Shown piece by piece: positions 1 through 25,570 of a stretch of 32,000 bases of DNA. A program made the translations under genes and the position numbers. The stretch spans positions 128 to 32,127 of the forward strand of contig LDAQ01000067.1 in assembly GCA_001028025.1 (NCBI GenBank), written 5' to 3'. The DNA comes from Faecalicatena fissicatena (lineage in GTDB: Bacteria > Bacillota > Clostridia > Lachnospirales > Lachnospiraceae). The notes beneath the pieces are model-generated. The model made no database searches, had not been told where the DNA came from, and saw only the letters and a list, made by a program, of their open reading frames with translations. Each line of letters starts with the position of its first letter. Position 1 is the first letter of the stretch.

Positions 1-70
1 GGATTCATGATCTGGAATTATAATTCAGCCGGAACAATTGCCGATACAGCATTAACAGCATCCGCAGCTC

Positions 71-443
71 CCGCCCGGATGCACCCAGCCTGTCCGGAAT
101 GCGGGACGCATGTCCGAAGCGGGAGCCCTACGGCAGCCCGGGAAACTTTCGTGCCCCTTTCCGGGGGCATAGAGAGCGCCGCTGGACTCACTTGGTAAAA
201 ACCGCATCGTATGGGGAGGCTAAAATCTGCTTCCGAAGCAGATTTTAAGACGGCCTGAGCCGCGCAATTCATCAGAATTGCACGTTGAATGCCGTCGATG
301 CCTCCCCATACGATGCGGTTTTTGCCTAGTGAGTCCCGGCAAACGGAAAGCCCCCGGAAAGGGGCACGAAAGTTTCCCGGGCTGCCGCAGGGCTCCCGCT
401 TCGGACATGCGTCCCACGTTCCGGACAGGCGTCCCTCCGCCCC
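71..443 (+). repeat. Long-hairpin element, copy A: imperfect arms of about 140 bp (88-229 / 299-430), branched apex 230-298, conserved 5' tail 74-90 and C-rich 3' tail 431-443
   Basis: The reverse complement of 88-229 matches 299-430 apart from a few mismatches and one internal loop. It shares conserved blocks with copy C, including a near-identical 43-nt apical block (252-294 vs 19011-19053, 1 difference). GC-rich compared with its flanks. It ends at the stop codon of the minus-strand thioredoxin gene. Confidence 0.85.
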
Positions 444-754
444 TACACCCTCATCATATCAACCAGTACTTTTTTTGCCAGCACCCCGCTTGCCGCCGAC
501 ACCGGCTTTCCTCCCTTAAATACAACAAATGTCGGGACAATCTCAACCTCAAATTCTGCCGCCAGGACCTCGCTTTCATCAATCTCAATCTGACAAACTT
601 TGACCCTGCCGTTATATTCTCTGGCGATCTCGTCCACAACATCTTCCATCATGGCGCACTTCCCGCACCAGACAGCAAAAAACTCAACCAATACAGGCGT
701 TTCTGACTTCAGAACCTCCTGTTGGTAATTTTTCGCAGTCACTCTGATTTTCAT
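443..754 (-). CDS. trxA: Thioredoxin-family protein with a WCGKC active site
   Basis: The ORF translation has a thioredoxin-fold signature (VLVEFFAVWCGKCAMM...VPTFVVFKGGK). ATG at 754 has AGGTG 6 nt upstream. The ORF track begins at an upstream GTG (763), which lies inside that SD-like sequence. Confidence 0.85.
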   Translation of the reverse strand: MKIRVTAKNYQQEVLKSETPVLVEFFAVWCGKCAMMEDVVDEIAREYNGRVKVCQIEIDESEVLAAEFEVEIVPTFVVFKGGKPVSAASGVLAKKVLVDMMRV

Positions 755-8552: not shown

Positions 8553-9920
8553 ATGTCAATAGAATATTTGGGACTCAGCAGTATTAACGGCCCTCTGATA
8601 GCACTGGAGGGCATCCAGGATGCCTTTTTCGATGAAATCGTAGAATTCGTCGTGGACGGCACAGAACGCAAAATTGGACGTATCGTAGAGATTTATGAGG
8701 ACAAAGCTGTCATACAGGTATTCGAAGGTTCCGAAAATATGTCCCTGAAGAATACCCATACCCGCCTTACCGGCCATCCGATGGAAATCGCTCTGTCCCC
8801 GGATATGCTGGGACGTACCTTCAACGGGATCGGGCAGCCTATCGATGATCTGGGTCCGATTACATCCACATTAAAGAGAGATGTAAACGGACTCCCGCTG
8901 AACCCTGTCATGCGGGAATATCCGCGAAACTACATCCACACAGGAATCTCCGCCATCGACGGGCTGACCACTCTGATCCGGGGACAGAAGCTTCCGATAT
9001 TTTCAGGAAACGGACTTCCCCACGACCAGCTGGCGGCTCAGATTGTGAAGCAGGCTTCCCTGGGCGAGAATTCCGAGGAACAATTTGCCATTGTATTTGC
9101 CGCCATGGGCGTCAAGCATGACGTTGCCGACTTCTTCAGGCGTACCTTTGAAGAAAGCGGTGTTGCAGACCACGTAGCCATGTTCCTGAACCTGGCAAAC
9201 GACCCGGTCGTAGAACGTCTGATCACGCCAAAAGTAGCGCTCACCGTAGCAGAATACCTGGCCTTCGAGCAAAACATGCATATCCTGGTTATCCTGACCG
9301 ATATGACCTCTTTTGCCGAAGCCATGCGTGAAGTCTCCTCCTCCAAAGGAGAGATTCCCAGCCGTAAAGGCTTTCCCGGATACCTCTACAGCGAACTTGC
9401 CACCATCTATGAGCGGGCCGGCATCGTGCAGGGTGTGAACGGTTCTGTAACCCAGCTGCCGATCCTGACCATGCCCAACGATGACATCACCCATCCGATC
9501 CCCGACCTGACCGGATATATCACGGAGGGCCAGATCGTACTGGAGAGAGAGCTGCACGGACAGTCCATCTACCCGCCGATCAACATTCTGCCGTCCCTGT
9601 CCCGTCTGATGAAAGACGGCATCGGAGAGGGCTACACAAGAGAAGACCACCAGGACCTTGCAAACCAGCTCTTCTCCGCCTACGCCAAGGTAGGAGACGC
9701 CCGAAACCTGGCTTCCGTCATTGGTGAGGATGAACTTTCCCCCATTGATAAAAAATATCTGGAATTCGGAAAAGCATTTGAAGAAAGATACATCGGCCAG
9801 GGGCAGAACGAAAACCGCAGCATGGAAGAGACTCTCAACCTGGGCTGGGAACTGCTCGGGCTGCTACCGAGAGAAGAACTCGACCGCGTCGATACCAAGA
9901 TACTCGACAAATATTATTAG
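8553..9920 (+). CDS. ntpB: V/A-type ATPase subunit B
   Basis: 455 aa with typical non-catalytic B-subunit sequence ([27 protein letters not shown]). Confidence 0.95.
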
Positions 9921-9954
9921 GGGTCAGACCCCTTTGCCAAAGGGGTCTGACCCC
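9920..9954. repeat. Perfect 35-bp palindrome GGGGTCAGACCCCTTTG-C-CAAAGGGGTCTGACCCC
   Basis: Read directly from the sequence. It starts on the last base of the ntpB stop codon and no T-tract follows it. The same half-site recurs at 25506-25570. Confidence 0.9.
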
Positions 9955-10010
9955 AATGAGCACCGTATTCAGAATATTCTGACTAATCAAACGTAAAAAG
10001 GAGGAGTTTC

Positions 10011-10637
10011 ATGGATCCGCGTACCTTCCCAACAAAAGGAAACCTTATGCTGGCAAAGAATTCTCTTGCCCTGGCAAAGCAGGGTTATGACCTGATGGAT
10101 AAAAAAAGGAATATCCTCATTCGGGAACTGATGGATTTGATCAATGAGGCCCGCGATATACAGGATGAGATCGACACCACGTTTACCTACGCGTACCAGT
10201 GCCTGCAGCGAGCTAATATTGAGCACGGGATCAATATGGTCGCTCAGCTTGCTTACACCGTGCCCATTGAGAACTCCATTACAATACAGACCCGCAGTAT
10301 TATGGGCACTGAGATTCCCCATGTTAAGTATACCCCAGGAAATAGTGCCCCCACGTATTCCTTCAGCACAACCCGGGAATCCATCGACCTGGCAACGGAA
10401 GCATTCCGCAAGGTAAAAGACCTGACCGTAAAGCTTTCTATGGTTGAAAATGCAGCCTACCGCCTAGCCTCTAATATAAAGAAGACTCAGAAGCGTGCAA
10501 ATGCCCTGCAGAATATTACGATTCCGATGTATTCGCAACTTGTTTATAATATCACCAATGCACTGGAGGAGAAGGACCGCGAGGAATTCACGCGCCTGAA
10601 GGTTATAAAGCGAATGAAACAGAGAAAAGGAGCCTGA
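10011..10637 (+). CDS. ntpD: V/A-type ATPase subunit D (central stalk)
   Basis: 208 aa. PTKGNLMLAKNSLALAKQGYDLMDKKRNILI is typical of subunit D. AGGAGG RBS. Confidence 0.9.
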   Translation: MDPRTFPTKGNLMLAKNSLALAKQGYDLMDKKRNILIRELMDLINEARDIQDEIDTTFTYAYQCLQRANIEHGINMVAQLAYTVPIENSITIQTRSIMGTEIPHVKYTPGNSAPTYSFSTTRESIDLATEAFRKVKDLTVKLSMVENAAYRLASNIKKTQKRANALQNITIPMYSQLVYNITNALEEKDREEFTRLKVIKRMKQRKGA

Positions 10638-10672: not shown

Positions 10673-11599
10673 TTAAAACTCCCATCCTCTCTTTGCACTT
10701 ATTTGGTATTTTTCCACTCTTCCTAATGCTGTATTAATCTGTTTTTTCCATTGATAAGGACTTATCCCGACAATCTTCTTAAAGTTCCGGTTAAAAGTAG
10801 AAATCGTTTGATAGCCTACCCGGGAAGCCACTGTCTCCATATGACAGTCATCTTTTTTCATGTAATCACATGCCGCCTGCACACGTATAAAATTAATATA
10901 CTCTACAGGTGTCATATTCATATCCGCCTGAAAAAGCCTGCGAAAATGTGTTTCACTCAAATGACTACATTCTGCAAGACCACAAATCGAGATATCCTCC
11001 CGATAGTGATCATGAATGTATTCCAGTGCACACGCAATCCTGCTTATGTTCTCCAAATCCATTGGCGGTGCATCCTCCCCCTTAATTCGTAATACCTGCA
11101 GCATAATATTAACGAGTGCACATCGTATAGAATCTTTCGCATAATCCCCTCCCTGACTGATCAACTCAAAAATCATCAATACCAAATTTCCCACATGAGG
11201 CGTCTCTATCGCAGAAAAAATAAATGCACTCTTATTAATGCCTGTCCTTATTTTTTCCCCTTTATATATGTTTCCACTGAAAGCCTCCAGTATAAGTTCT
11301 TCTGCGTCAAAATACAGGAACTCCCAATGACTGCGTATATCACTGTTCGTAGTATGCGGAAAGTTCTGAGGAATAAAAGTAAATGATCCGTCTTCGTAAT
11401 CATAACAGTTTTTATTTAATACCACCTGTCCTTTTCCGTGGCGGCAGTACCCAATCTCAACCATATTATGAAAGTGAAGACCGCCGTTTCCTTTCCCGTA
11501 GTCACGGTTCCAGCCTTCCCCCATCAATGCAAAAACCGGCTCCTTCCCCGGCTTTTCATAAAATCGAAATTCAGCATATTCTTTTTTATTCTTCCCCAT
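10673..11599 (-). CDS. AraC-family transcriptional regulator (N-terminal cupin-like sensor, C-terminal HTH)
   Basis: The C-terminus carries AraC HTH features (LSETHFRRLFQADMNMTPVEYINFIRVQAACDYM...GYQTISTFNRNFKKIVGISPYQW). GGAGGG RBS. Confidence 0.9.
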   Translation of the reverse strand: MGKNKKEYAEFRFYEKPGKEPVFALMGEGWNRDYGKGNGGLHFHNMVEIGYCRHGKGQVVLNKNCYDYEDGSFTFIPQNFPHTTNSDIRSHWEFLYFDAEELILEAFSGNIYKGEKIRTGINKSAFIFSAIETPHVGNLVLMIFELISQGGDYAKDSIRCALVNIMLQVLRIKGEDAPPMDLENISRIACALEYIHDHYREDISICGLAECSHLSETHFRRLFQADMNMTPVEYINFIRVQAACDYMKKDDCHMETVASRVGYQTISTFNRNFKKIVGISPYQWKKQINTALGRVEKYQISAKRGWEF

Positions 11600-11726
11600 A
11601 ATAAAATCCCTCCGAACACCTTAAAACACCTGCCATTACATATAAAGAGGTACCGCACAATAACTGCAATCAGATATTTTGCGGCACCAAGATAAAACTT
11701 TATAAATTCAATTTTACTTAAATCCC

Positions 11727-13652
11727 TTAGAATTCAAATACAGCAACTCCATATCCCGGCAGAGAATATGCAAAAGAGTATTTTCTGCCATCACAGTCCT
11801 GCTTCTCAGCCTTATAAATCAGAGGTCTCTCCTCACCGCTTCCGCCGTACTGCTCATCATCACCGTTCAATACAAGTTTATACTGCTTCCGCCTCGGCAC
11901 TCCAACCCTGTAATCCGGCCTGTCAACCGGCGTAAAATTGCACACAAACAGCAGATTCTTCTTATTATCCTTTGAATGCCTTACAAAACTGAAAATACTG
12001 CGGAATGTATCATCCTTATTGATCCATTCGAACCCTTCCGGATCCGTATCCAGTTCATAAAGCGCTTTATTCTTTCTATACAAATGAAGCAGATCCCGGT
12101 AGAATCGCTGTATCTGCTGATGCGGTTCCTCCGCCAGCAAAAACCAGTCCAGTTCCCGTTCCTCGCTCCACTCTCTGAGCTGCGCGAAATCCTGCCCCAT
12201 AAAGAGCAGCTTCTTCCCCGGATGACCGATCATAAAGGCATAGGCCGCCTTCAGGTTCGCAAACTTGTCAAACCCTTCTCCCGGCATCTTATTGACCATG
12301 GAGCACTTCAGATGCACCACCTCATCATGGGAAAGTACAAGAATATAATTCTCACTGTAAGCATATTCCATAGAGAATGCCATCTGATAATGTGCGTTCT
12401 TTCTAAACAGCGGATCCAGCTTCATATACTCTGTAAAGTCATGCATCCATCCCATATTCCACTTCAGGCTGAAGCCCAGCCCGTCATCCTCGGGAGCACC
12501 TGTTACCTTCGGCCATGCAGTGGATTCCTCTGCGATCATCATTGCACCATGATTCCTGCCCAGCACGACGGAATTCAAATGTCTGAAAAACGCAATCGCC
12601 TCCAGATTCTGATTGCCTCCAAACTTATTCGCAATCCACTGACCGTCCTGCTTGCCGTAATCCAGATACAGCATGGATGCCACAGCGTCCACTCTCAATC
12701 CATCCACATGATAATGCTCAATCCAGAACAGTGCATTGGCAATCAGGAAATTCTGAACCTCCAGCTTCCCATAATCGAAGATTTTCGTACCCCAGTCCGG
12801 ATGCTCTCCCTTTTTTGGATCTGCGTATTCAAAAACCGGCGTGCCATCAAAATCAGCAAGCCCATGCGCATCTTTTGGAAAATGTGCGGGTACCCAGTCC
12901 AAGATAACACCGATCTTATTCCTGTGGAGATAGTTGATCATATATGCAAAATCTTCCGGTGTACCGTACCTGCAGGTAGGTGCATAGTATCCCGTTACCT
13001 GATATCCCCATGAACCGTCAAAAGGATGTTCTGCCATCCCCATCAGTTCCACATGAGTATATCCCATCTCTTTGACATACTTCACAATTGCCCTGGCAAA
13101 ATCTCTGTAGGTATAAAACCCTTCATCTTCCCTGCCCGGGTGTCTCATCCAGGATCCCAGGTGCACCTCGTATATTGCCAGAGGATTCTCCTTACTGCTC
13201 CATTCCTTCCTGGCTTCCATCCATTCCCCGTCTGTCCATGACAAATGTGAAATATCGGTAATCCTGGAAGCTGTTCCGGGGCGCAGCTCTGCATAATTTG
13301 CAAATGGATCTGCCTTGAAAAGCCGTTTTCCCTGCATCGTTTCTATACAGAACTTATATAAATCCCCGTCCTGAACCCCTGGAATAAAACAGGTATATAT
13401 ACCCTCAGGATCCTGACGTTCCATATAATTCTCTTCGAAATCCCATTCGTTGAAGTCTCCCACAACAGACACGCGCCTTGCATTGGGAGCCCATACTGCA
13501 AAGTAAACTCCGTCTTTTCCCCTTACTGTCACCTTGTGGGCACCAAGCTTCTTATAGATCTCATAATGTGTCCCCTGGCCGAACAGATACTGGTCCAGTT
13601 CCCCAATTTCATAAGGCTTTACTTTCTTTTGTACGGTTTTTTTATTTCCCAT
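11727..13652 (-). CDS. glgB: 1,4-alpha-glucan branching enzyme
   Basis: 641 aa. N-terminal CBM48-like segment (VYFAVWAPNARRVSVVGDFNEWD) and GH13 catalytic motifs (GVILDWVPAHF, GLRVDAVASMLY, AEESTAWP, LSHDEVVH). Confidence 0.95.
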   Translation of the reverse strand: MGNKKTVQKKVKPYEIGELDQYLFGQGTHYEIYKKLGAHKVTVRGKDGVYFAVWAPNARRVSVVGDFNEWDFEENYMERQDPEGIYTCFIPGVQDGDLYKFCIETMQGKRLFKADPFANYAELRPGTASRITDISHLSWTDGEWMEARKEWSSKENPLAIYEVHLGSWMRHPGREDEGFYTYRDFARAIVKYVKEMGYTHVELMGMAEHPFDGSWGYQVTGYYAPTCRYGTPEDFAYMINYLHRNKIGVILDWVPAHFPKDAHGLADFDGTPVFEYADPKKGEHPDWGTKIFDYGKLEVQNFLIANALFWIEHYHVDGLRVDAVASMLYLDYGKQDGQWIANKFGGNQNLEAIAFFRHLNSVVLGRNHGAMMIAEESTAWPKVTGAPEDDGLGFSLKWNMGWMHDFTEYMKLDPLFRKNAHYQMAFSMEYAYSENYILVLSHDEVVHLKCSMVNKMPGEGFDKFANLKAAYAFMIGHPGKKLLFMGQDFAQLREWSEERELDWFLLAEEPHQQIQRFYRDLLHLYRKNKALYELDTDPEGFEWINKDDTFRSIFSFVRHSKDNKKNLLFVCNFTPVDRPDYRVGVPRRKQYKLVLNGDDEQYGGSGEERPLIYKAEKQDCDGRKYSFAYSLPGYGVAVFEF

Positions 13653-13735
13653 AAGCCCACCTCACTGCTCGTATTTTATATGTACAATTATACTTGATAT
13701 GTCCTGAAAAAGAAAGGGAAATCCGCCTCATGGCA

Positions 13736-13767
13736 TAAAATAGACAGACTCCGCAGAATCTGTCTAT
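13736..13767 (-). terminator. Putative intrinsic terminator after the 1220-aa gene
   Basis: ATAGACAGA / TCTGTCTAT stem with a 10-nt loop, followed on the minus strand by a short TTTTA tract. Confidence 0.5.
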
Positions 13768-13778
13768 TACATCACATT

Positions 13779-16700
13779 TTAAATATTAAAGTCCTTTTCC
13801 GAAAGGATAATTCTGTCCGCATCATCCGTATTTTTTCCAAATACACGTTTTACCAATTTCTTTGCTGATGCCTTCTGAGAATGCTCCATAGCCTCATCCA
13901 TGACTTCCTTCACTTCCGCAACTGTCACGGCATGGTCCTCTCTCTGAAGCGCGTCAATCCTGCTGTAGAGTGCAAGAATTCCCATCTCATCGATGCGGTA
14001 TCCATTTTCCTGAGCATATGTCTGGCCGAATGTTACAAGTTCATCATTAATGAAAATCGGTACTTCCAGACGGCTCGTAAACTTCCTGCGGAATTCCCTG
14101 TTGGAGGAAAGCAGTCTGTCCAGAGGCTTCCTCTGCTCTTCAAGAACAACCATCATCTCGCCTGTATCTCTTTCCATCGCCTTATTCAGCCTTGCCACGG
14201 TCTTTTCGTTCAGCTTTCCGGCCTTCTCGATAATCAGAGCGCCGCCGTATAATTTATCAAAAATATCGCTGATCTTTTTCTTATTCAGAGAGTCGCCCGT
14301 TACAATTGCAACCTTTCCCTGCCTGATATTCCTCTGCTTCTGGATTGCTTTGACAACATCCACAGCCAGAACAGTCTTACCATTTCCTTTATTACCAATG
14401 ATAAGGAGGTTGCCAGTTTTGGAAGTGCCGTTCCGGTTCGTGCAGTTATTGTCCTGCTCAAGTACATCCACAAGCTGCTCACTCATACCGCGTACCGGCA
14501 CAAAGTATGAGAATAACTTTTTCTGCTCATCTGTAAGCCCGGCCCGTGTCCCGATACCGCTCTGTGTCTCCAGATCGTATCTGCCATGGACAACAAATCC
14601 CGTGTCTGACATGGAAAGCGCATCTGAGATCTCGTTCAGCGGAAGAGGTGCTGTCTTACCTGTTGCAATCAGCTTTGCCGTTTCCTTACGGCTCAACGGA
14701 GTTGTAGCCGACATGATATCTATATCATCATCTTCATCCGGGATCTCTCTATCGTCAAATTCTTCCACTTGTTCCGGGTTCGGTCGGAACTCTTCCTCGA
14801 AACCAGCTGCTATATCTTCTATATCCTCGGCAGGCTCCTCGGTATCATATTCAGCAAGTTCCTCTTCCTCATACTCATCGTAGTAATCCTGGTCATATTC
14901 CTCTTCATATGATTCTTCCTCGATCTCATCGTAGTCTTCCTCATATGCTTCGCCATCATCATACTCATCTTCCGGATATGTTTCTTCTTCGTATTCCTCT
15001 TCACCATATCCGTCATCATAGAATTCTTCTTCAGCTTCTTCATATTCTGCCGTAAATTCTTCCTCAGCTTCCAGTTGAGACTCTTTTATATCATCGTACT
15101 CTTCATCATAAGATTCTTCTGCATCGCCGTACTCCTCGTCATAAGAATCCTCATACTCGTCTGCATAATCATCTTCATATACTTCTTCGTCTGACGCTTG
15201 AGCATATTCGTCTACTTCCTCCGGAAGGTCATCAATGAAACCTTCCAAATCTTCTTCAATACCATCGTCTGAAGCATCAAGGAACTCCGCGATATCATCA
15301 ATTCTGAGCTGCTGCGTTATTGCCCCCATATTTTCACGAGGTTCTTCATCCCTTCTGGCAGGTGTCCTCACAGTTTTGGGTTCCTCAGGCAGCACTCCTT
15401 CAATCTCGTCAATCAATCTCTGAATATCCGGCGGCAGTATCGGCTCCGCACTCTTTTTCTTTTCTTCCATCTTGTCCTCTTCTGCCGGTTCATCCTGCTC
15501 GTCATGCCCTAATCCCATTAAAATGTCTTCAATGCTGAGCTGACCTTGTATCTGGTCGTCATCCACCGGCTTTTTATTCTCCTGCTTTATATTATCTGCT
15601 GCGGCTGCATCTTCTATTCTCTCTGGTACCTCTTCGAAAGGTTCCTCCTGCAGCTCTTCTTTACTGTCTGCCAACTCTTCTTCCTCTGGCAGTTCCTCTT
15701 CTGATTCTGCTAGAGGTTCTTCCACAAACGTCTCCTCTTCGGAATCCACTATCTGTTCTGCCCCGTTATCTTCCAGCAGTTCTTCCACGTACAATAACTC
15801 TTTTGAATCTTCTGTCACTTCTTCCTCGTACAGTTCTTCTGCGGAATCTTCTGCCGGTTCTTCCTCTGGCAGTTCTTCTTCGATATCTTCCAGGGATTCT
15901 TCCCCGTACAATTCCTCTTCAGTGTCTTCTGCCGGTTCTTCCTCTGACAGTTCTTCTTCGATATCTTCCAGGGATTCTTCCTCGTACAGTTCCTCTTCAG
16001 TGTCTTCTGCTGTTTCTTCCTCCTCTTCTTCCAGCGGCTCCTCGTCCCACAATTCTTCCTCTGTTGCTTCAAGTACTTCATTGAGAAGTTCGCCGTCAAT
16101 ACCTTCTGCCTCTATTGCAGATTCTGAAAATTCCTCTTCCATATCTTCCGGGAGTTCCTCAGAAAATACCTCACCGATAATTTCTTCCACTTCCTCCAGT
16201 GATTCACCTTCCAGAAGTTCTGTCTCTTCCACAGTCACCTCTTCTGCAGGTTCTTCCGCTGTTTCCGGGGACAGTTCTTCATCCGGGATCTCATCCTCAA
16301 GAGGTTCAGCTTTCAACTCTTCCAAATCTTTATCAAATTGAATTTCTCTTTTTTTCTTTCCTGCATATTCATTTACAAGTTCCAGATCTATCACGGATTC
16401 GATTTCTTCTATTGCTACTTCCAGCTCAGGGATCTCTTCTTCGTCAAGCTCTTCCTCTTCCGTTTCTATTTTTTCATCTTTATTTTTAGGCCGCAAAAGA
16501 CTCTGCAGGGCATCCTCCAGCTTCATCCTGCTGCCGATTCCTTTTTGCTCCAGTTTTTGTACGGTCTCATCTACTGGCAAGTCATCCGGCTCACTATCAG
16601 CCTCCGGAGTCTCCTTCGCTTCTTCTGCCAAAGGCTCCTCTTTCAATGGAGTCTCTTCATCTGAATCTTCTTTAGCAGCGGCTTCTGACTGATCCGTATC

Positions 16701-17441
16701 TGTTTCTTCCGGTGAATAATCATCCCCAGAATCATCACCGTCCAGCTCTTCTGCAGCAGCAGCTTTTCTAGCCTGATATTCTGTCAAATCCGGAAGCTCT
16801 TCCGTCTCGGATTCAATCTTCTCATACCTGTGGTCATACTTTTCCTGCTGTGAAGGTGTCAGCTGTTTATACTGCATCTTAAGTTCCATCGCTTTAAATA
16901 CGAACTTTCCTTCACTGAACCAGAGGATCAAATCGTCACACTCCTCCAGACACTCGGCAGTCATACCGGCTTCCTGATATAATCTTGCCAGTTCATATGC
17001 CCATTCTTCAATGTATTCTGCCTTCTTAAACTCCTCCAGCGCTTCAATCTGCTGTTCAACCGGAGCTCTTCTGGCCCTTAATATCTTATATCGCAAAATA
17101 TGCTGGTTTGGATCCTTAGGAGCAACCTGCATAAAATCGTCATAATAGTCGATGGCTTCATCAACATTTCCTGTTTTAAGTGCAAGAGCGCATAAACGAT
17201 AGATAACCTTCCTGCTGCCTTCCGCACGATGATAAGCAATATTCAGAACCTCGTAACTCTTCTGATAGTCCCCGTTTCTCTCATATATGTCACTGACATT
17301 TGTCAGCATAGTGGCATTTCTGACTCTCTTCCAATCGATGGTATCCGCAATCTCGGCCGCTTTATTATATGCACCGCTTTCCATAAGTTCAAGCATCTGT
17401 TCTGTCTTTAACTTATATTCGTACTTGTCCACTGCACTCAC
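13779..17441 (-). CDS. Giant TPR / hyper-acidic low-complexity / CbbX-SpoVK-like AAA+ protein with an atypical Walker B
   Basis: The N-terminal ~200 aa are TPR-like helical repeats. The central ~700 aa are dominated by E/D with internal repeats. The C-terminal ~300 aa align by eye to the SpoVK/CbbX/EccA AAA+ module: Walker A GNKGNGKT (14373-14396), GGALIIEKAG in place of GGVLFIDEA (14223-14237), and NREFRRKFTSRLEVPIF resembling NPGLRSRF. The start may instead be GTG 17432 (GAGGTG 6 nt upstream). Confidence 0.85.
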   Translation of the reverse strand: MSAVDKYEYKLKTEQMLELMESGAYNKAAEIADTIDWKRVRNATMLTNVSDIYERNGDYQKSYEVLNIAYHRAEGSRKVIYRLCALALKTGNVDEAIDYYDDFMQVAPKDPNQHILRYKILRARRAPVEQQIEALEEFKKAEYIEEWAYELARLYQEAGMTAECLEECDDLILWFSEGKFVFKAMELKMQYKQLTPSQQEKYDHRYEKIESETEELPDLTEYQARKAAAAEELDGDDSGDDYSPEETDTDQSEAAAKEDSDEETPLKEEPLAEEAKETPEADSEPDDLPVDETVQKLEQKGIGSRMKLEDALQSLLRPKNKDEKIETEEEELDEEEIPELEVAIEEIESVIDLELVNEYAGKKKREIQFDKDLEELKAEPLEDEIPDEELSPETAEEPAEEVTVEETELLEGESLEEVEEIIGEVFSEELPEDMEEEFSESAIEAEGIDGELLNEVLEATEEELWDEEPLEEEEEETAEDTEEELYEEESLEDIEEELSEEEPAEDTEEELYGEESLEDIEEELPEEEPAEDSAEELYEEEVTEDSKELLYVEELLEDNGAEQIVDSEEETFVEEPLAESEEELPEEEELADSKEELQEEPFEEVPERIEDAAAADNIKQENKKPVDDDQIQGQLSIEDILMGLGHDEQDEPAEEDKMEEKKKSAEPILPPDIQRLIDEIEGVLPEEPKTVRTPARRDEEPRENMGAITQQLRIDDIAEFLDASDDGIEEDLEGFIDDLPEEVDEYAQASDEEVYEDDYADEYEDSYDEEYGDAEESYDEEYDDIKESQLEAEEEFTAEYEEAEEEFYDDGYGEEEYEEETYPEDEYDDGEAYEEDYDEIEEESYEEEYDQDYYDEYEEEELAEYDTEEPAEDIEDIAAGFEEEFRPNPEQVEEFDDREIPDEDDDIDIMSATTPLSRKETAKLIATGKTAPLPLNEISDALSMSDTGFVVHGRYDLETQSGIGTRAGLTDEQKKLFSYFVPVRGMSEQLVDVLEQDNNCTNRNGTSKTGNLLIIGNKGNGKTVLAVDVVKAIQKQRNIRQGKVAIVTGDSLNKKKISDIFDKLYGGALIIEKAGKLNEKTVARLNKAMERDTGEMMVVLEEQRKPLDRLLSSNREFRRKFTSRLEVPIFINDELVTFGQTYAQENGYRIDEMGILALYSRIDALQREDHAVTVAEVKEVMDEAMEHSQKASAKKLVKRVFGKNTDDADRIILSEKDFNI
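15821..16030 (-). repeat. 78-bp (26-aa) in-frame tandem repeat, about 2.7 copies, inside the acidic region
   Basis: Units start at 15821, 15899 and 15977 and are near-identical. They encode ...EELYEEESLEDIEEELSEEEPAEDT... Confidence 0.9.
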
Positions 17442-17520
17442 CTCGTTAATATAATATTATTTATATCTTTTATCCGGCATACGCCCGTTTATACGCACAT
17501 GTGCAGATAATTCTGTCCTT

Positions 17521-17549
17521 AGTTTACCATAAGCACTTCCCAATGTCAA
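17521..17549 (-). promoter_or_regulatory. Candidate sigma-A promoter for the 1220-aa gene
   Basis: Minus strand: TTGACA (17544-17549), 17-nt spacer, TAAACT (17521-17526), about 80 nt upstream of the start codon. Confidence 0.5.
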
Positions 17550-17586
17550 AAAAATGCATCCTCAATTGACATTGAAGATGCATTTT
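17545..17586 (-). terminator. Intrinsic terminator downstream of the decayed ORF
   Basis: A 16-bp stem (17551-17566 / 17571-17586, 1 mismatch that is G-U on the minus strand) with loop TGAC, followed by T7 on the minus strand. Confidence 0.65.
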
Positions 17587-17618
17587 AACACTTATTTAAT
17601 TTTCTCATTCTATATATT

Positions 17619-18160
17619 TTATAAATCGGAGGAATCTTTTGATTTTCGTTCCTGTAAGACCTTTACCGCTTTGTTTATTGATGCTTCAATCTGTTCACTA
17701 AGACTTGCTTACTAAACCTCCTGTCCTTCAATATACAAATCGATTATATAACTAGAATCCAATCGCTCTCGCTCCTGGTACCGATTCATAATAGTAAAGT
17801 ATAACCTTAGGTTATTCATCCTATAGCCTTTCAGTTCCCGCAGTATTGTATAACAATATTCCAGCAGCCTATTAAGCTATTTCTTCTATAACTATGTACA
17901 CTTTTTATGAAATGATATCCTGTTAATGTTTCTTTACACATATCAGGAACTCTGTTATACGTGGTATCTATATTCAATACGTTTGCAAATGTTAAATCTT
18001 TGATTTTAATCCAGTTTCCGAACTCTCCGATTAAATCCTTTTCATTCTTCTTTTGTACTGGATTCCTTTATCTTATATCAGTAAAGGTCTCTTCTTCACA
18101 GGAACTTCCATTTGCCGTACCACTAACATATTGAACTATAAATGACGATACATTGTCCAT
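17619..18160 (-). pseudogene. Decayed AT-rich gene of about 180 codons, broken by in-frame stops and a frameshift
   Basis: Hand translation: AAGGAGG RBS, then MDNVSSFIVQYVSGTANGSSCEEETFTDIR*RNPVQKKNEKDLIGEFGNWIKIKDLTFANVLNIDTTYNRVPDMCKETLTGYHFIKSVHSYRRNSLIGCWNIVIQYCGN*, then after a frame change MNNLRLYFTIMNRYQERERLDSSYIIDLYIEGQEV**ASLSEQIEASINKAVKVLQERKSKDSSDL*. I do not recognise the family. Confidence 0.5.
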
Positions 18161-18406
18161 TGGACCTTTGCCTCCTTGATCAAATATTTTAATCTAATTG
18201 AACATTTTTATTATGTTCGTTCAGATGATTTCCTTTGAGATATCTTTTTCTTTTTTATTTATCTCGTTTGGATTAGTTAGATAATATCATACAAGCTATC
18301 ATTTGTCAACGCACTTTATTCTTTTTTAATAAATAAATATATAATTGTCCAAATTACACATATTTATCAGATTATTTCGAAAGTCAGAATTTTTTGGTAG
18401 TTGGTA

Positions 18407-18681
18407 TGGGGCCGCTGTGTGGAATTGGAACAGGCCTCTCCAGAATGCGGGATCAGGGCGTAAGTGCCGCTTCATCAAAATCGGAGCCGGCATGGTGAAC
18501 ACCGCGGACACTTGCGAGAATTCTGATGAATTCTCACTGCGGGTCTGCTTGTTTACAGGCCTTGTGGGCCTGTAAACAGTTCACATGCCGGCTCCGATTT
18601 TGATGAAGCGGCACTAACACCCCGATCCAGCATCCTGGAGATGCCTGTTCCAATTCCGCACAGCTGGGTGCATCCGGGCGG
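18407..18681 (-). repeat. Long-hairpin element, copy B (inverted orientation, divergent): arms 18413-18499 / 18569-18664
   Basis: Arms of about 90 bp are complementary with about 8 mismatches. The conserved tail CCGCCCGGATGCACCCAGC is present as its reverse complement at 18663-18681. The apex holds GAGAATT-CTGATG-AATTCTC (18516-18535), equivalent to the A/C apical hairpin with compensatory stem changes. Confidence 0.8.
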
Positions 18682-18850
18682 AAAAAATTTGACTATCAGG
18701 GGGGATAATGACGGGGGCAGCGAATTGAGTCGTTTCACTTGAGCGGAATGCCTCCGGCACTCTTATAATAATAATTACTGGGGGCATACCTATATGGGAT
18801 TCCAGCCCAATCCGCCGCTTCCGGATCCTCCCACCGTACGGTTTTCCCTG

Positions 18851-19186
18851 CGCCCGGATGCACCCAGCCAGTCTGGAGCGGGAGTTCTGCCGGCGGGCGG
18901 GGGGATTTTCCGTGCGCTTTCTGAATGCATAGAGAGCACTTACAAACACTTAAGAAAAACCATGCCGGATGGAAAGGATAAAATTTGCTCACCAAAGCAA
19001 ATTTTAAGGTGGCCTGAGCCGCGCAATTCATCAGAATTGCACGGTGAATGCCGCCGGGCCTTTCCATCCGGCATGGTTTTTCTTAAGTGTTTGTTAGTAA
19101 ACGGACCGCATACAGAAAGCGCACGGAAAATCCCCCCGCCCGCCGGCAGAACTCCCGCTCCAGACTGGCGCCCCCTCCTCGTCCCC
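18851..19186 (+). repeat. Long-hairpin element, copy C: arms 18867-18977 / 19059-19169, including a perfect 57-bp inverted repeat
   Basis: 18867-18923 is the exact reverse complement of 19113-19169. It carries the conserved 5' tail, internal loop (18927-18937 / 19099-19105) and apex (19011-19053) shared with copy A. It ends 7 nt from the stop codon of the minus-strand histidine kinase. Confidence 0.9.
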
Positions 19187-19193
19187 TCGCTTC

Positions 19194-20534
19194 CTAAATC
19201 TTAACTTGTACGGTGTAGATCCCCCCTTCATTAAGTACATACAGTTCTCCCCCATGGCGTTCCACCATTTTTCCTACGCTTTTGAGTCCGATCCGGTTGC
19301 TGTCGGTCTCATTTACTTCTTTTTTAACTGTATTTATCAGAGTTATTTTCATCTGCTGTTTTTCTGTTTTGAAGGTCAGACTGACAGGGATTTTCTTGTC
19401 TCCATATTTTAATATATTTGAAAACAGGTTGTTGAATATTCTCTTGAGCATTGTTGCATCGCCGATGACCGTTCCCCGGCTTTCTTCCATTGTCACTTCC
19501 GCCTCAAATCCGGCAAGCTTAAGGAAGTCCAGGTTTTCCTGCAGGATTTCCAGGACGGCCTGTACTGGTACCTTCTCCATGTTAACTTCCTCTGTTTCTT
19601 CAAATACAAGCGCATACTCGAACATTTTATCTGTCATCTCTTTGATGTCACTTGTTTTCTGAAGACATCTGGAAAGATACTCCTCTTCCATTGACTCCGG
19701 TATCTTTTTCAGCTGCAGTACTTCCAGATATCCGTTGAGAATCGTCAGCGGTGTCCTCAGATCATGGGATATGGCCGTGATCAGGTCCTGATTGGCCTTC
19801 CGGCTTTCTTCCTCCTGCCGGATGTTCTCATCCAGCGCAGTACGGAGCTTGTCCAGCTCTTCAGCCAGAATGCCGATTTCATCCTCCCCGCAGTCTGGAA
19901 CCGGATGCTTTAAATCGCCTGAGGCCATCTGCAGCACCTCATCCTTCAGGCAGAGAACCTGTTTCATTCTTCGGTTGATAAACAGCAGATTTATTGCCAG
20001 GAATACACCGACACTGATCAGCACGCTGATTAAAAGGTATGGATAAACCATTTTCATGGCATGATAGGAGTAAATCATCACACTGTATGTTCCATTACGG
20101 AATTCTATTGCGACCTCATCGTAGTTTTCAATTTCTCCTGATGAGACTTTGTATCCTGCATCCAATAGGCTGCCGTATACTACCCGTTCTGTAATCTCAG
20201 GATATGCACCGGCCCTGTATAGGCCTTTTCCTCCGATTTCATAAATATATATTCCGGTATATTCATCCTTGGGAGCAAAAAATGACTTGATTTCTGCCTG
20301 TTCTTCCTTATTTTCTTCCCGTTCCGGGACATCATAATATTTTGCATTCACTTCGAGCTCTTCAATCAGTGCCTGTTCATCCCAGGTGATCGAAGGGAAT
20401 CTGCACAGAAATTTCCATACATTGCCCATGTTTGACCAGACAAACCAAAAAAGAAAAAGACTTACGATCGCAGAAGCCAGCATAAGTATAGAAAGCTTCG
20501 TGCGTATTTTCCAGCTTTTTACTGCGGACTTCAT
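19194..20534 (-). CDS. Sensor histidine kinase (2 TM helices with an extracytoplasmic loop, HAMP, HisKA, HATPase_c)
   Basis: H-box ISHDLRTPLTIL, N-box FNNLFSNILKYG, G-box-like IGLKSVGKMVERHGG. The ATG at 20534 lies 4 nt after the response-regulator stop. The longer track ORF (to 20687) overlaps that gene and was not used. Confidence 0.9.
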   Translation of the reverse strand: MKSAVKSWKIRTKLSILMLASAIVSLFLFWFVWSNMGNVWKFLCRFPSITWDEQALIEELEVNAKYYDVPEREENKEEQAEIKSFFAPKDEYTGIYIYEIGGKGLYRAGAYPEITERVVYGSLLDAGYKVSSGEIENYDEVAIEFRNGTYSVMIYSYHAMKMVYPYLLISVLISVGVFLAINLLFINRRMKQVLCLKDEVLQMASGDLKHPVPDCGEDEIGILAEELDKLRTALDENIRQEEESRKANQDLITAISHDLRTPLTILNGYLEVLQLKKIPESMEEEYLSRCLQKTSDIKEMTDKMFEYALVFEETEEVNMEKVPVQAVLEILQENLDFLKLAGFEAEVTMEESRGTVIGDATMLKRIFNNLFSNILKYGDKKIPVSLTFKTEKQQMKITLINTVKKEVNETDSNRIGLKSVGKMVERHGGELYVLNEGGIYTVQVKI

Positions 20535-20538
20535 TTTC

Positions 20539-21276
20539 TTAATCACAGCGGTACCCCTTTCCCCATATGGTTTTAATGAGTACTGGATTCTTTGCATCTT
20601 TTTCAATCTTTTTACGCAGATTTCTGATATGGACCATAATCGTATTGTTGGCTCCGTAATAGTAAGGTTCGTCCCAGACCGCTTCATACAGTCTTTCCGC
20701 CGAAAATATCTGGTACCGGTATTTTATAAGCAGATGGAGCATGGCATATTCTGTGTCCGTAAGTTCTATCTGCCGGCCTTCTGCATACACCGCCTCCTGC
20801 TCTTCATCTATCTCCAGATCATGGAAATGCAGGCGCTGCTTTTCCTGGGTATTACCGATGCAGATCACTTGTTCCGACACCGTCTCACTGTTCTCTTTCC
20901 CTTTATAAATCTGATACCGCCTGATAAGAGCTTTGGCACGGCTGACAAGCTCGTTGTAGGAAAATGGTTTTACCAGATAATCGTCCCCGCCGCTGGAAAA
21001 TCCCAGCGTTTTATCGCTTTCCTGCCCCTTTGCGCTTAAGAATAAAATGGGTGCATTGCTCAGCTTCCGGATTTCCAGACAGGTCTGGTATCCGTTCATC
21101 CCCGGCATCATGATGTCCAGGATGATCAGGTCAAACATCCCCTGTTCCAGCATTTCCAGAGCCTTCATACCATTCCTTGCTTCTTCGATGTCATACCCTT
21201 CACCCTGAAGTAATATACGGATAATCTCACGGATTTCCGGATTGTCATCTACTATTATAATTCTGGCTGTTTCCAT
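20539..21276 (-). CDS. OmpR/PhoB-family response regulator
   Basis: Receiver domain METARIIIVDDNPEIREI...DLIILDIMMPGMNG, and a winged-helix C-terminus LTDTEYAMLHLL...TIWGKGYRCD. The ATG at 21276 has AAGGGGGA about 9 nt upstream. The 106-codon upstream extension in the track is non-homologous. Confidence 0.9.
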   Translation of the reverse strand: METARIIIVDDNPEIREIIRILLQGEGYDIEEARNGMKALEMLEQGMFDLIILDIMMPGMNGYQTCLEIRKLSNAPILFLSAKGQESDKTLGFSSGGDDYLVKPFSYNELVSRAKALIRRYQIYKGKENSETVSEQVICIGNTQEKQRLHFHDLEIDEEQEAVYAEGRQIELTDTEYAMLHLLIKYRYQIFSAERLYEAVWDEPYYYGANNTIMVHIRNLRKKIEKDAKNPVLIKTIWGKGYRCD

Positions 21277-25503: not shown

Positions 25504-25505
25504 TT

Positions 25506-25570
25506 CAAAGGGGTCAGACCCCTTTGCCGGAGGGGACAGTCCCCTCTGCAAAAGGGTCTGACCCCTTTTC
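25506..25570. terminator. Compound palindrome between convergent genes, probably a bidirectional terminator and a GGGGTCAGACCCC-family repeat
   Basis: CAAAGGGGTCAGACCCCTTTG ... GAGGGGACAGTCCCCTC ... CAAAAGGGTCTGACCCCTTTTC. The outer arms are complementary, the inner hairpin has a 7-bp stem, and T-rich runs lie on both sides. It sits between the GT2 stop (25503) and the metG stop (25600). Confidence 0.7.

Follow-up and report, generated by a model that had tools for sequence, protein, structure and literature searches.

The window, a 32,000-nucleotide stretch of contig LDAQ01000067.1 of Faecalicatena fissicatena, contains three members, named A, B, and C, of a family of giant hairpin elements, and copy A adjoins the stop codon of a thioredoxin (trx) gene. 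The family exists as defined here, with 14 members in the DNA analyzed, and is not a product of chance. The parts that are conserved among the members are the unpaired ones, namely the head, loops, and tail, whereas the sequences of the stems differ among copies. The conserved shape, the asymmetric ends, the inverted doublets, the patchy occurrence, and the location at gene ends lead us to propose, with about as much belief as doubt, that the family may be a new giant analog of repetitive extragenic palindromic (REP) and bacterial interspersed mosaic elements (BIMEs) that is recognized in its folded single-stranded form, with copy A as a solo member. The literature that was searched contains no description of this family, nor of such repeats in gut Clostridia, and the family appears to be undescribed.

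Architecture and pairing of the hairpin family

Copy A occupies positions 59–445 of the window. Its 343-nt hairpin (88–430) is followed by a 12-nt C-rich tail, which reaches the trx stop codon at 443–445. The outer arms (88–168 and 350–430; 81 nt) are 96% complementary, and the inner arms (184–220 and 300–336; 37 nt) are 95% complementary. The fold computed for the RNA has an energy of −305.6 kcal/mol (z = −27.8) and that for the DNA of −190.4 (z = −31), while the complementary strand has an equally good fold (−316.8); z is below −21 for every fold computed. The mismatches within copy A are two G.T and three A.C. Its unpaired parts are the GCACCCA of the head (81–87), an internal loop with nine nucleotides on each side (the 9 × 9 loop), the junctions of the forked tip, and the 3′ tail. 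The first-pass annotation of the window had placed this loop at 167–177 opposite 341–349; the loop is present and conserved, however, it starts at 169.

The members of the family are A, B, and C in the window, E1–E4 in Faecalicatena contorta (L020), M and N (L024), Q1–Q3 (L042), and R1 and R2 (L043–L046). The family has so far been found in four Faecalicatena-like Lachnospiraceae genomes or metagenome contigs, which represent the species of the window, F. contorta, and two further metagenome lineages. The hairpins are 246–343 nt long, and a unit including its leader and tail spans approximately 290–400 nt. Read from 5′ to 3′, a unit consists of a leader box CATCCGCWGCYCCCG, the head CGGATGCACCCA, a long stem, a forked tip, and a C-rich tail with a final CTA. 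The head in the plan common to the 14 members is (C)GGATG-CACCCA, after which a G-C pair closes the hairpin; the head motif has three matches in the window, compared with 0.19 expected. The first stem comprises 60–108 base pairs, nearly all of which are Watson–Crick. The 9 × 9 loop is conserved in A, C, and four copies of other genomes, has a variant form in three more, and is absent from B, E2, M, and N; in the nine copies that contain it, it reads ATAG.G.. opposite ..AA(A/G)CGG (ATAGAGNGC opposite AAACGGA). The second stem ends in a fork of two hairpins: hairpin a, which is variable and has a C-rich loop, and hairpin b, which has an ATCA loop. The hairpins b of A and C are 91% identical. The ATCA loop is present in nine of the nine members tabulated (as ATCG in E2 and ATCAA in E3), and also in Q1, Q3, and R1 according to pattern matches and in Q2 as read from its sequence. 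In the subfamily of A, hairpin b is flanked by GCCTGAGCCG...GGTGAATGC. The tail follows the consensus G(T/G)CCC(C)..(CA)TCCGC and remains C-rich up to the CTA in 13 of the 14 members. The G + C content of the elements is 56–62%, compared with 46% for the window.

The two ends of a unit are conserved, unlike each other, and not mutually complementary, and the outermost bases of the stem vary among copies (GCCTGTCC, GCTGTGCG, GCCAGTCT, GCTCCATG, and others). This variation and the lack of conserved end repeats rule out a transposon-like element with terminal inverted repeats. In the copies of F. contorta, the GGATG of the head pairs with a CATCC of the tail, which closes the hairpin and leaves a C-rich 6 × 6 loop at its foot. 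The head sequence can alternatively pair with the leader box, as it does in the minimum-energy folds of A and E4. The box CATCCGCWGCYCCCG is located 0–45 nt 5′ of the head in C, B, E2, Q2, R2, and the partner of Q3, as read from spacers and flanks, and a related CATCCGC or TCCGC sequence is found again in the tail.

Seven of the eight sites are head-to-head doublets: B–C, E1–E2, E3–E4, M–N, Q1–Q2, Q3 with a partner that is cut by the contig end, and R1–R2. The spacers of the doublets are approximately 150–450 nt long, include both leaders, and in most cases have a (G)TTATA(A/G)T motif at their center. The motif is present in the B–C, E3–E4, Q1–Q2, and R1–R2 spacers, and the palindrome AATTATAATT at positions 16–25 of the window is its counterpart at copy A. 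The stem sequences of the two halves of one doublet are unrelated. The spacer of M–N (L024, 4400–4640) is unusually long, with 476 nt, and contains three tandem C-rich repeats of approximately 58 nt (..CCACTCAGATTAATTC.CCCACC.GCCACCAC..). The density of the family in carrier genomes is 14 copies in approximately 125 kb, with three copies in the 32-kb window, four in 8 kb of F. contorta, and four in 11 kb of L042, one of which is cut by the contig end.

The members were collected in several ways. A scan for head and tip patterns in one genome per species identified true copies only in two F. contorta strains, and the same patterns identified one further true locus in metagenomes, and inspection of these loci then yielded more copies with variant heads. 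The patterns are too strict, since variant heads are common among the members, and assemblies break at long palindromes. Matches in five Lachnospiraceae and Oscillospiraceae genomes (L016–L019 and L021) are coincidental conserved coding sequences (GGATGCACCCAGCAG...CTTCTTCATCAGAAGCTCCAGCTT) and do not belong to the hairpin family. Five more members were recovered with the spurious open reading frame (ORF) across A as a protein query. A protein-coding reading of the hairpins was rejected, because the ORFs across them share only the tip peptide ..ILMNCAAQA.., and paired changes in the stems rewrite the remainder. Public gene calls across the hairpins describe hypothetical proteins of 133–175 residues (L006, 4767–5168; L039 and L040, 10001–10402; L042, 10001–10417; L043, 5881–6408); these database entries are spurious. 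A search of Rfam (release 15) produced no match for the hairpins at the gathering threshold, and the sole notable sub-threshold match in a permissive search was the plant MIR8562, with 84 bits against a threshold of 211, which is a spurious match to a long hairpin. Copy A has no blastn match in the phage and plasmid collections. Among viral contigs, the 18-nt head has nine matches, all due to chance and inside coding regions of high-GC phages, and the tip-hairpin pattern has none.

Covariation was evaluated in six independent members of A's subfamily, which were aligned and analyzed with RNAalifold and an explicit count of pairs against 500 shuffles. Standard pairs occupy 93.5% of the cells, compared with 75.7% in shuffled alignments and 39–48% when the partner is slid by 1–3 columns. 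Both sides are altered in 84 of the 132 pairs (shuffled, 34 ± 4; slid, 13–26), and the covariation score is 0.53 (shuffled, 0.19; slid, 0.08–0.13). None of the 500 shuffles reaches any of the observed values. The helix of hairpin a is paired in 100% of its cells, with both sides changed in 7 of 11 pairs. About half of the double changes are transversions, as read by eye from the table of pairs. The arms of the 14 copies contain 1336 Watson–Crick, 20 G.T, and 17 A.C pairs, and thus have little wobble and no strand bias, which agrees with the earlier statement that the mismatches of copy A do not disclose the transcribed strand. The near absence of wobble together with the lack of strand bias is compatible with either a strict constraint on complementarity, such as that of folded single-stranded DNA, a cruciform, or a perfect double-stranded RNA, or gene conversion between the arms. 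Conversion alone does not account for the conserved asymmetric loops, head, tail, and tip; therefore, selection must maintain these parts. The first-pass annotation had suggested that the conserved loop and unpaired tail form a recognition surface, and the finding that the unpaired parts are indeed the conserved ones points to probable recognition of the folded single strand.

Strong covariation is also characteristic of functional RNAs, and the units may instead be genes for a structured non-coding RNA. Transcription would start at the TTATAAT in the AT-rich spacer center, which is symmetric and possibly bidirectional, and proceed from head to tail to produce a rod-shaped RNA of approximately 350–450 nt. 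The targets of its conserved loops (CACCCA/GUCCC, AUAGAGNGC/AAACGGA, AUCA, and the C-rich loop of hairpin a) and of its tail would be a protein or G-rich ribosome-binding sites in mRNAs, and the C-rich, G-poor tail could double as a Rho loading site. The conservation of unpaired loops, the persistence of old and diverged copies that are still intact, and the location of a TTATAAT-like motif in the center of five spacers are consistent with this possibility. The two alternative partners of the head, the leader box and the tail box, are also reminiscent of an RNA switch. In hairpin b, one G.U pair is invariant (alignment columns 202/229) and would be an A.C mismatch on the opposite strand; it is the sole, weak hint that the head-to-tail strand is the working one. 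However, so few wobble pairs and such a lack of strand bias are unusual for RNA helices, and a nearly perfect duplex of 60–108 base pairs would be a substrate of RNase III. No head has an acceptable −35 box upstream of it, and the scans found no consistent promoter: at A, TATAAT was scored solely as pointing away from the element (TCGGCA-16-TATAAT), and nothing in the window points into B or C. Furthermore, the tail is not followed by a terminator, Rfam contains no matching family, the units are absent from close relatives, and the population may include deletion alleles. We consider RNA genes an unlikely explanation of the family.

Table 1 Features of copy A and of the B–C doublet in the window
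Feature	Positions	Strand	Description
Palindrome AATTATAATT	16–25		10 nt, perfect; TATAAT on both strands; read from sequence
Leader box CATCCGCAGCTCCCG	59–73	+	Complementary to CGGATG of the head; read from sequence
Head CGGATGCACCCA	76–87	+	Mostly unpaired, at 5′ foot of hairpin; invariant among A, B, and C; variants in 14 of 14 members
Stem I, 5′ arm	88–168	+	Partner 350–430; from folds and covariation
Internal loop 2, 5′ side ATAGAGAGC	169–177	+	9 × 9 loop; (C)ATAGAG(A/T)GC kept in A, C, E4, Q3, R1
Stem II, 5′ arm	178–220	+	Partner 300–340; from arm comparison and folds
Tip hairpin a	221–247	+	Sequence variable among copies, always fully paired; C-rich loop
Tip hairpin b	249–296	+	Conserved: GGCCTGAGCCGC-GCAATTC-ATCA-GAATTGC-ACGKTGAATGCC; ATCA loop at 271–274
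Stem II, 3′ arm	300–340	+	From arm comparison and folds
Internal loop 2, 3′ side AAACGGAAA	341–349	+	AAACGGA kept in A, C, E4, Q3, R1
Stem I, 3′ arm	350–430	+	From arm comparison and folds
C-rich tail GTCCCTCCGCCC (431–442) and terminal CTA (443–445)	431–445	+	CTA complements the TAG stop of trx
Thioredoxin gene	443–754	−	103 aa; adjoins copy A; Pfam PF00085; homologs also 103 aa, except one
Copy B	18397–18682	−	Stem 18414–18664; head 18665–18678; tail 18397–18413, end CTAC; without loop 2
B–C spacer	18683–18854		Both leaders; box of C CAATCCGCCGCTTCCGG at 18808–18824; central TTATAAT at 18763–18769
Copy C	18855–19196	+	Head 18855–18866; stem 18867–19169; 24-nt tail 19170–19193; CTA 19194–19196 is the kinase TAG stop
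Histidine-kinase gene	19194–20597	−	467 aa as called in public contigs

Gene ends and stop codons

The first-pass annotation had let copy A end at the first base of the thioredoxin stop codon. The abutment holds; however, position 443 is the last base of that codon, since the gene is on the minus strand. It had also observed that the C-rich tails of A and C face the 3′ ends of genes, which is correct and likewise applies to the genes at E3, M, Q1, and Q2. The distance from the base of the stem to the stop codon is 12 nt for A (thioredoxin), 16 nt for Q1 (a ferredoxin-type gene), 24 nt for C (histidine kinase), 25 nt for M (a gene for a 78-aa product), about 34 nt for Q2 (phosphoenolpyruvate carboxykinase), and 34 nt for E3 (hydrogenase); the stop codon is TAG in the first five and TAA in the last. 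The distance of 7 nt that had been given for C hinges on an arbitrary end of its tail, although the tail-first placement stands. By contrast, the similarity in placement of A and C does not carry the weight it had been given, because C is not independent but half of a head-to-head doublet with B, and the tails point outward in seven of the seven doublets. Since both outer ends of a doublet are tails, the orientation of C follows from its pairing with B, and only the solo copy A is informative.

TAG is the stop codon of five of the six adjoining genes, compared with 21% of the 56 long ORFs in the same DNA (binomial P of about 0.002, calculated by hand). A CTA is located where C-richness ends in 13 of the 14 tails, compared with 8.7 ± 1.8 in composition-matched shuffles (P = 0.013), and the complementary TAG is also present at tails that do not adjoin a gene (R1, B, E1, E2, and E4). 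The kinase of the window ends with ..VQVKI, whereas nine homologs with identities of 62–87% all continue with ..VQ[VI]x[FIL]Pxx(x); therefore, it has lost its last 3–4 codons. Its TAG is inside a tail motif (CGCT(TCC)TAAAT) that is common to the tails of E3 and E4. Thioredoxin retains its usual 103 residues; its last codon encodes V, G, or S among the strains that carry A, and its three C-terminal residues are not those found in relatives. The simplest reading of these sequences is that the element either has a TAG at its end or uses one as its target. The abutment seems to reflect the position of the elements and not a placement after a pre-existing stop codon.

The units occupy various positions relative to genes. 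The doublets B–C, E3–E4, and M–N are located between genes of the same direction, Q1–Q2 between convergent genes, and E1–E2 between divergent genes, while Q3 and R1 are positioned toward gene starts. The tails of B, E4, N, Q3, and R1 face promoters. A preference for gene 3′ ends, for which the first-pass annotation had proposed a survey, is therefore frequent, with six genes, but not a rule, because about half of the tails point toward promoters or are located between divergent genes. The neighboring genes are housekeeping genes in conserved order, and include a V-type ATPase operon, trx, tRNA-Lys, a two-component system, hydrogenase, and phosphoenolpyruvate carboxykinase.

The six genes, in four loci, that are followed by a tail-first hairpin 12–34 nt after the stop could indicate a cis element selected by the host at gene 3′ ends. 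The TAG, a G-rich stretch, and the hairpin would replace the terminator and block 3′-exonucleases, RNA polymerase, or both; the hairpin might also affect terminating ribosomes, and copies would be kept for this function whatever their origin. An effect on terminating ribosomes has been reported for REP sequences near stop codons of E. coli. In the species of the window, there is no other terminator-like site from trx to the tRNA-Lys promoter, nor from the kinase to the next promoter according to a terminator scan of the window, and relatives have ordinary terminators at exactly these places. REP elements have been reported to stabilize mRNA, terminate transcription, and affect translation (PMC6006769). 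Several properties of the family are at odds with such a device: the orientation of approximately half of the tails; the elaborateness of a 300-nt hairpin, whose conserved forked tip, loops, and head far exceed what stabilization or termination needs; the same conserved features in the doublet partner that faces away from the gene; and the conserved leader and tail boxes, which are left unexplained. In agreement with the first-pass annotation, a canonical intrinsic terminator is ruled out by the lack of a U-tract: the scans show internal sub-hairpins only, and no T-run after the hairpin on either strand. A dedicated 3′-end device is quite unlikely as the explanation of the family, but it can coexist with a REP-like origin of the units.

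Since the units lie directly 3′ of ORFs and overlap their stop codons, recombination sites that act as folded single-stranded DNA, like integron attC or the forked-hairpin site of phage CTX, also come into question. A tyrosine recombinase would recognize the unpaired bases as well as the foot, where the GGATG/CATCC helix, the C-rich 6 × 6 loop, and the first pairs of the stem would resemble a core site; the neighboring genes would be exchangeable. The conservation of structure and not of sequence, the conserved unpaired bases and loop near the foot, and the restriction of pairing to Watson–Crick pairs are all in line with this proposal. However, the units are flanked not by cassettes but by housekeeping genes whose order is conserved, they form inverted pairs, whereas attC arrays all point one way, and the units are 2–5 times longer than attC sites. 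No integrase gene is seen in any of the loci, and the R″/R′ boxes (RYYYAAC/GTTRRRY) are absent. We regard such sites as a very unlikely identity of the units.

Distribution among relatives and variation within species

The thioredoxin protein is present in many public contigs. Two of them, L001 (NCBI assembly GCA_046883715.1) and L002, are identical to positions 1–470 of the window, while many more break off within a few dozen bases past the trx or the kinase gene. Many contigs end exactly at A or C, evidently because long palindromes break short-read assemblies. In longer contigs of the same species (L039 and L040), the order is trx, A, approximately 270 nt, tRNA-Lys, and a YibE/F gene; therefore, A is a genuine solo unit between a stop codon and the next promoter. 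The tRNA-Lys (CTT) gene that follows A in strains without the insertion sequence described below is located at 10618–10690 of L040, and the order of trx and tRNA-Lys is also found in the relative L027, which has 79% identity and no hairpin. No tRNA or tmRNA genes were detected in the window itself.

On the head side of A, beyond position 1 of the window, L001 contains two tandem copies of an insertion sequence (10850–14431). Each copy encodes a protein of approximately 430 residues with only an N-terminal HTH_38 domain, and the two have end sequences in common (..TTGGTTGA(A/G)TTTCAGGGTTAATGCAACTTTATCAAAGTAAATGCA..). The insertion sequence is missing from the locus in L039 and L040, and is thus strain-specific and unrelated to the hairpins, which rules out a link between A and the two HTH_38 genes. 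A terminator-like hairpin located 250 nt past A in L001 was likewise rejected as the trx terminator, since it sits at the edge of the insertion sequence.

Copy A is also present behind the trx of a relative whose trx is 92% identical. By contrast, relatives with identities of 85%, 79%, and 77% (L025, L027, and L029) lack the long hairpin behind trx and, as read from the sequence, have a short GC-rich hairpin right after the stop codon, with a T-rich run behind it in L025 and L029. Behind the kinase, the long hairpin is absent in relatives with identities of 87% and 69% (L033 and L034), which have a short GC-rich hairpin instead; for the trx and kinase loci together, a T-rich run follows the short hairpin in four of the five hairpin-free relatives. 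Approximately 135 kb of DNA from hairpin-free relatives contain no hairpin of this kind. Repeated or mobile DNA would account for this absence no less well than a dedicated device acting on transcripts. The best explanation for the location of units behind trx and the kinase is that members of a repeat family, with a stop codon at their end, landed and survived there; a dedicated read-through device explains it poorly.

Variation of the units within species takes several forms. Comparison of E3–E4 between the two F. contorta strains shows 27 differences in 1020 positions, all of them single changes and none on both sides of a pair. Copy A of L006 differs from that of the window by five substitutions (transitions or transversions), three of which are in one arm. 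Two contigs that encode the identical kinase, L035 (6400–6720) and L038 (2395–2410), have deletions inside B–C (window 18397–19193), whose junctions show microhomologies of 4–8 nt. In L038, the 680 nt that extend from the start of the stem of C to the end of that of B are missing; in L035, the head and interior of C are missing together with the interior of B, and the spacer of this contig is 94% identical to the window, compared with 99.3% for the flanks. These deletions suggest that the elements are dispensable and unstable. In L032 (1095–1273), a short contig of the relative with the 92% identical trx, the inner part of A, which comprises loop 2, stem II, and the tip, is flipped with respect to the tail and the outer arm.

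Relation to known elements and proposed origin

The family shares with REP elements, BIMEs, and REPINs the intergenic location of its repeats, the precedence of hairpin over sequence, an unpaired motif at the 5′ foot, and inverted doublets. It also shares with them the coexistence of several diverged subfamilies per genome, the association with gene 3′ ends, a patchy and lineage-specific occurrence, and the presumed recognition of folded single-stranded DNA (PMC6006769). REP hairpins are 21–65 nt long, have the tetranucleotide GT[AG]G 0–2 nt 5′ of the foot, and have asymmetric conserved ends, as in IS200/IS605 (PMC6006769); BIMEs and REPINs are inverted doublets of them (PMC6006769). By contrast, the hairpins of the family described here are 246–343 nt long and have CGGATG-CACCCA at the foot, with a (T/G)TAG 7–39 nt from the foot on the other strand. 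A forked tip, a conserved second hairpin, a 9 × 9 loop, and leader and tail boxes are found only here, and, unlike in REP doublets, the halves are unrelated in their stems and the doublet does not fold into one hairpin. As both the size and the foot differ from those of REP elements, and no enzyme was found at the loci, the family is not classified as REP.

IS200/IS605 elements and the transposase-less PATEs resemble the family in their unlike ends, in the hairpin-dependent recognition presumed here, and perhaps in the lack of a target duplication. A guide beside the foot of the IS200/IS605 hairpin pairs with the cleavage sites, and CGGATG could here pair with both CATCCG boxes. However, IS200/IS605 elements have two short hairpins, one per end, whereas a single giant hairpin makes up the whole body here, and they insert strand-specifically, whereas adjacent units of the family are opposed, with no tnpA or tnpB gene nearby. 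Integron attC sites are also conserved in structure more than in sequence, have unpaired recognition bases, and are located immediately 3′ of an ORF. They differ in their length of 57–141 bp, in same-direction arrays beside an integrase, in mobile cassettes, and in RYYYAAC/GTTRRRY boxes, none of which is seen here. Correia, ERIC, RUP, BOX, and bcr1 elements are likewise short non-coding intergenic hairpin repeats, which are often co-transcribed and can alter gene ends, but they have conserved terminal inverted repeats, target-site duplications, and copies that are alike in sequence. The family is set apart from these miniature inverted-repeat elements by its variable outer pairs, its asymmetric conserved ends, and a common shape with little common stem sequence. 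Intrinsic terminators share with the units a GC-rich hairpin shortly past a stop codon, at the place where relatives have a terminator; however, the units lack a U-tract on either strand, their hairpin is 10–20 times longer, and half of the copies are not behind a gene.

In the REP-like origin that we propose, the units would be repeated DNA that is or formerly was mobile, and an enzyme acting in trans would recognize the folded single strand in the manner of REP/RAYT or IS200/IS605 systems. Pairing of the CGGATG of the head with the CATCCG box on either flank suggests a candidate guide and two candidate cleavage sites. A unit that landed tail-first on a gene end would supply a stop codon, cause little cost to the host, and therefore persist. 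It would take the place of the terminator and be co-transcribed as a huge 3′ hairpin, which may secondarily block RNA degradation or RNA polymerase.

Several observations weigh against this proposal. No gene for a RAYT or Y1-HUH enzyme was found in the 46 loci examined, although no genome-wide search for the enzyme was made, and the units exceed any REP in length by a factor of 4–15 and lack a GTAG at the foot. No direct repeat is present at the flanks of A, B–C, and E1–E2, where the ends are imprecise and a TA duplication could hide in TAG...CTA; more broadly, no clean empty site, target duplication, or exact boundary was obtained, and the DNA of relatives beyond trx and the kinase is rearranged and not collinear. 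No two copies are nearly identical, and there is no sign of a recent burst. Within one genome, the stems are very different in sequence, yet each is 91–98% self-complementary, which requires ongoing selection or gene conversion between arms and would equally fit a host function. The divergence of E3–E4 between the F. contorta strains is approximately 2% in the hairpins and approximately 5% in the spacer, although these numbers are small, and the orientation of the inner part is the same in 14 of the 14 catalogued copies, which implies a constraint. The flip in L032 and the deletions in L035 and L038 could be real alleles of unstable palindromes with recombining arms, or artefacts of assembly or amplification. 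The flip, if real, would point to a further, doubtful possibility, that the inner part between inverted arms of 60–80 bp can turn over, as in L032, and thereby change the strand that shows the conserved loops.

The units may also represent a new type of mobile or regulatory element, although this is a tentative view and, on balance, a doubtful one. Their whole body would be a chromosomal rod hairpin with the shape of a viroid, whose CGGATG guide alternates between the CATCCG boxes of its flanks and which brings its own TAG stop. The guide pairing would allow an enzyme acting on single strands to cut and paste the unit, or would switch an RNA between two folds, and the TAG at the end would enable the element to establish itself on the final codons of genes and to assume the position of the terminator.

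The window has other features in addition to the giant hairpins. A second, ordinary family of short palindromes (AAAGGGGTCAGACCCCTTTG) occurs at 9919–9959, behind the V-ATPase operon, and at 25505–25566, in the gap between a glycosyltransferase gene and metG; the same motif also forms the terminator behind the kinase in the relative L034. An ORF on the minus strand (13779–17441) encodes a 1220-residue product with N-terminal tetratricopeptide repeats, and contains an extensive stretch of repeats with a 39-nt period, in which codons for acidic residues are abundant (14866–16340). Upstream of its start, approximately 840 nt (17442–18309, minus strand) contain no ORF of at least 60 residues, and a strong promoter-like site is located at 18309–18281 (TTGACA-17-TATTAT with an upstream TG). 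The gap may represent a decayed gene or a long leader, or may result from a misplaced start; a public gene call starts approximately 420 nt upstream of the GTG of the ORF.

Near-perfect palindromes such as these have practical consequences, because they break short-read assemblies, yield spurious proteins, and distort metagenome assemblies of these taxa. The family is also a test case for palindromes that stay paired while their sequence drifts, whether through selection or through gene conversion between arms. If the units were RNA genes instead, they would constitute an unusual multicopy family of rod-shaped RNAs in common gut bacteria. The elements show how repeated DNA can settle harmlessly on gene ends, with a stop codon of its own and a replacement for the 3′ hairpin. 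If the REP-like origin is correct, the principle of recognition by shape that is used by REP, REPIN, and IS200/IS605 elements would extend to elements that are up to 15 times larger and more elaborate, and would reach the gut Clostridia.

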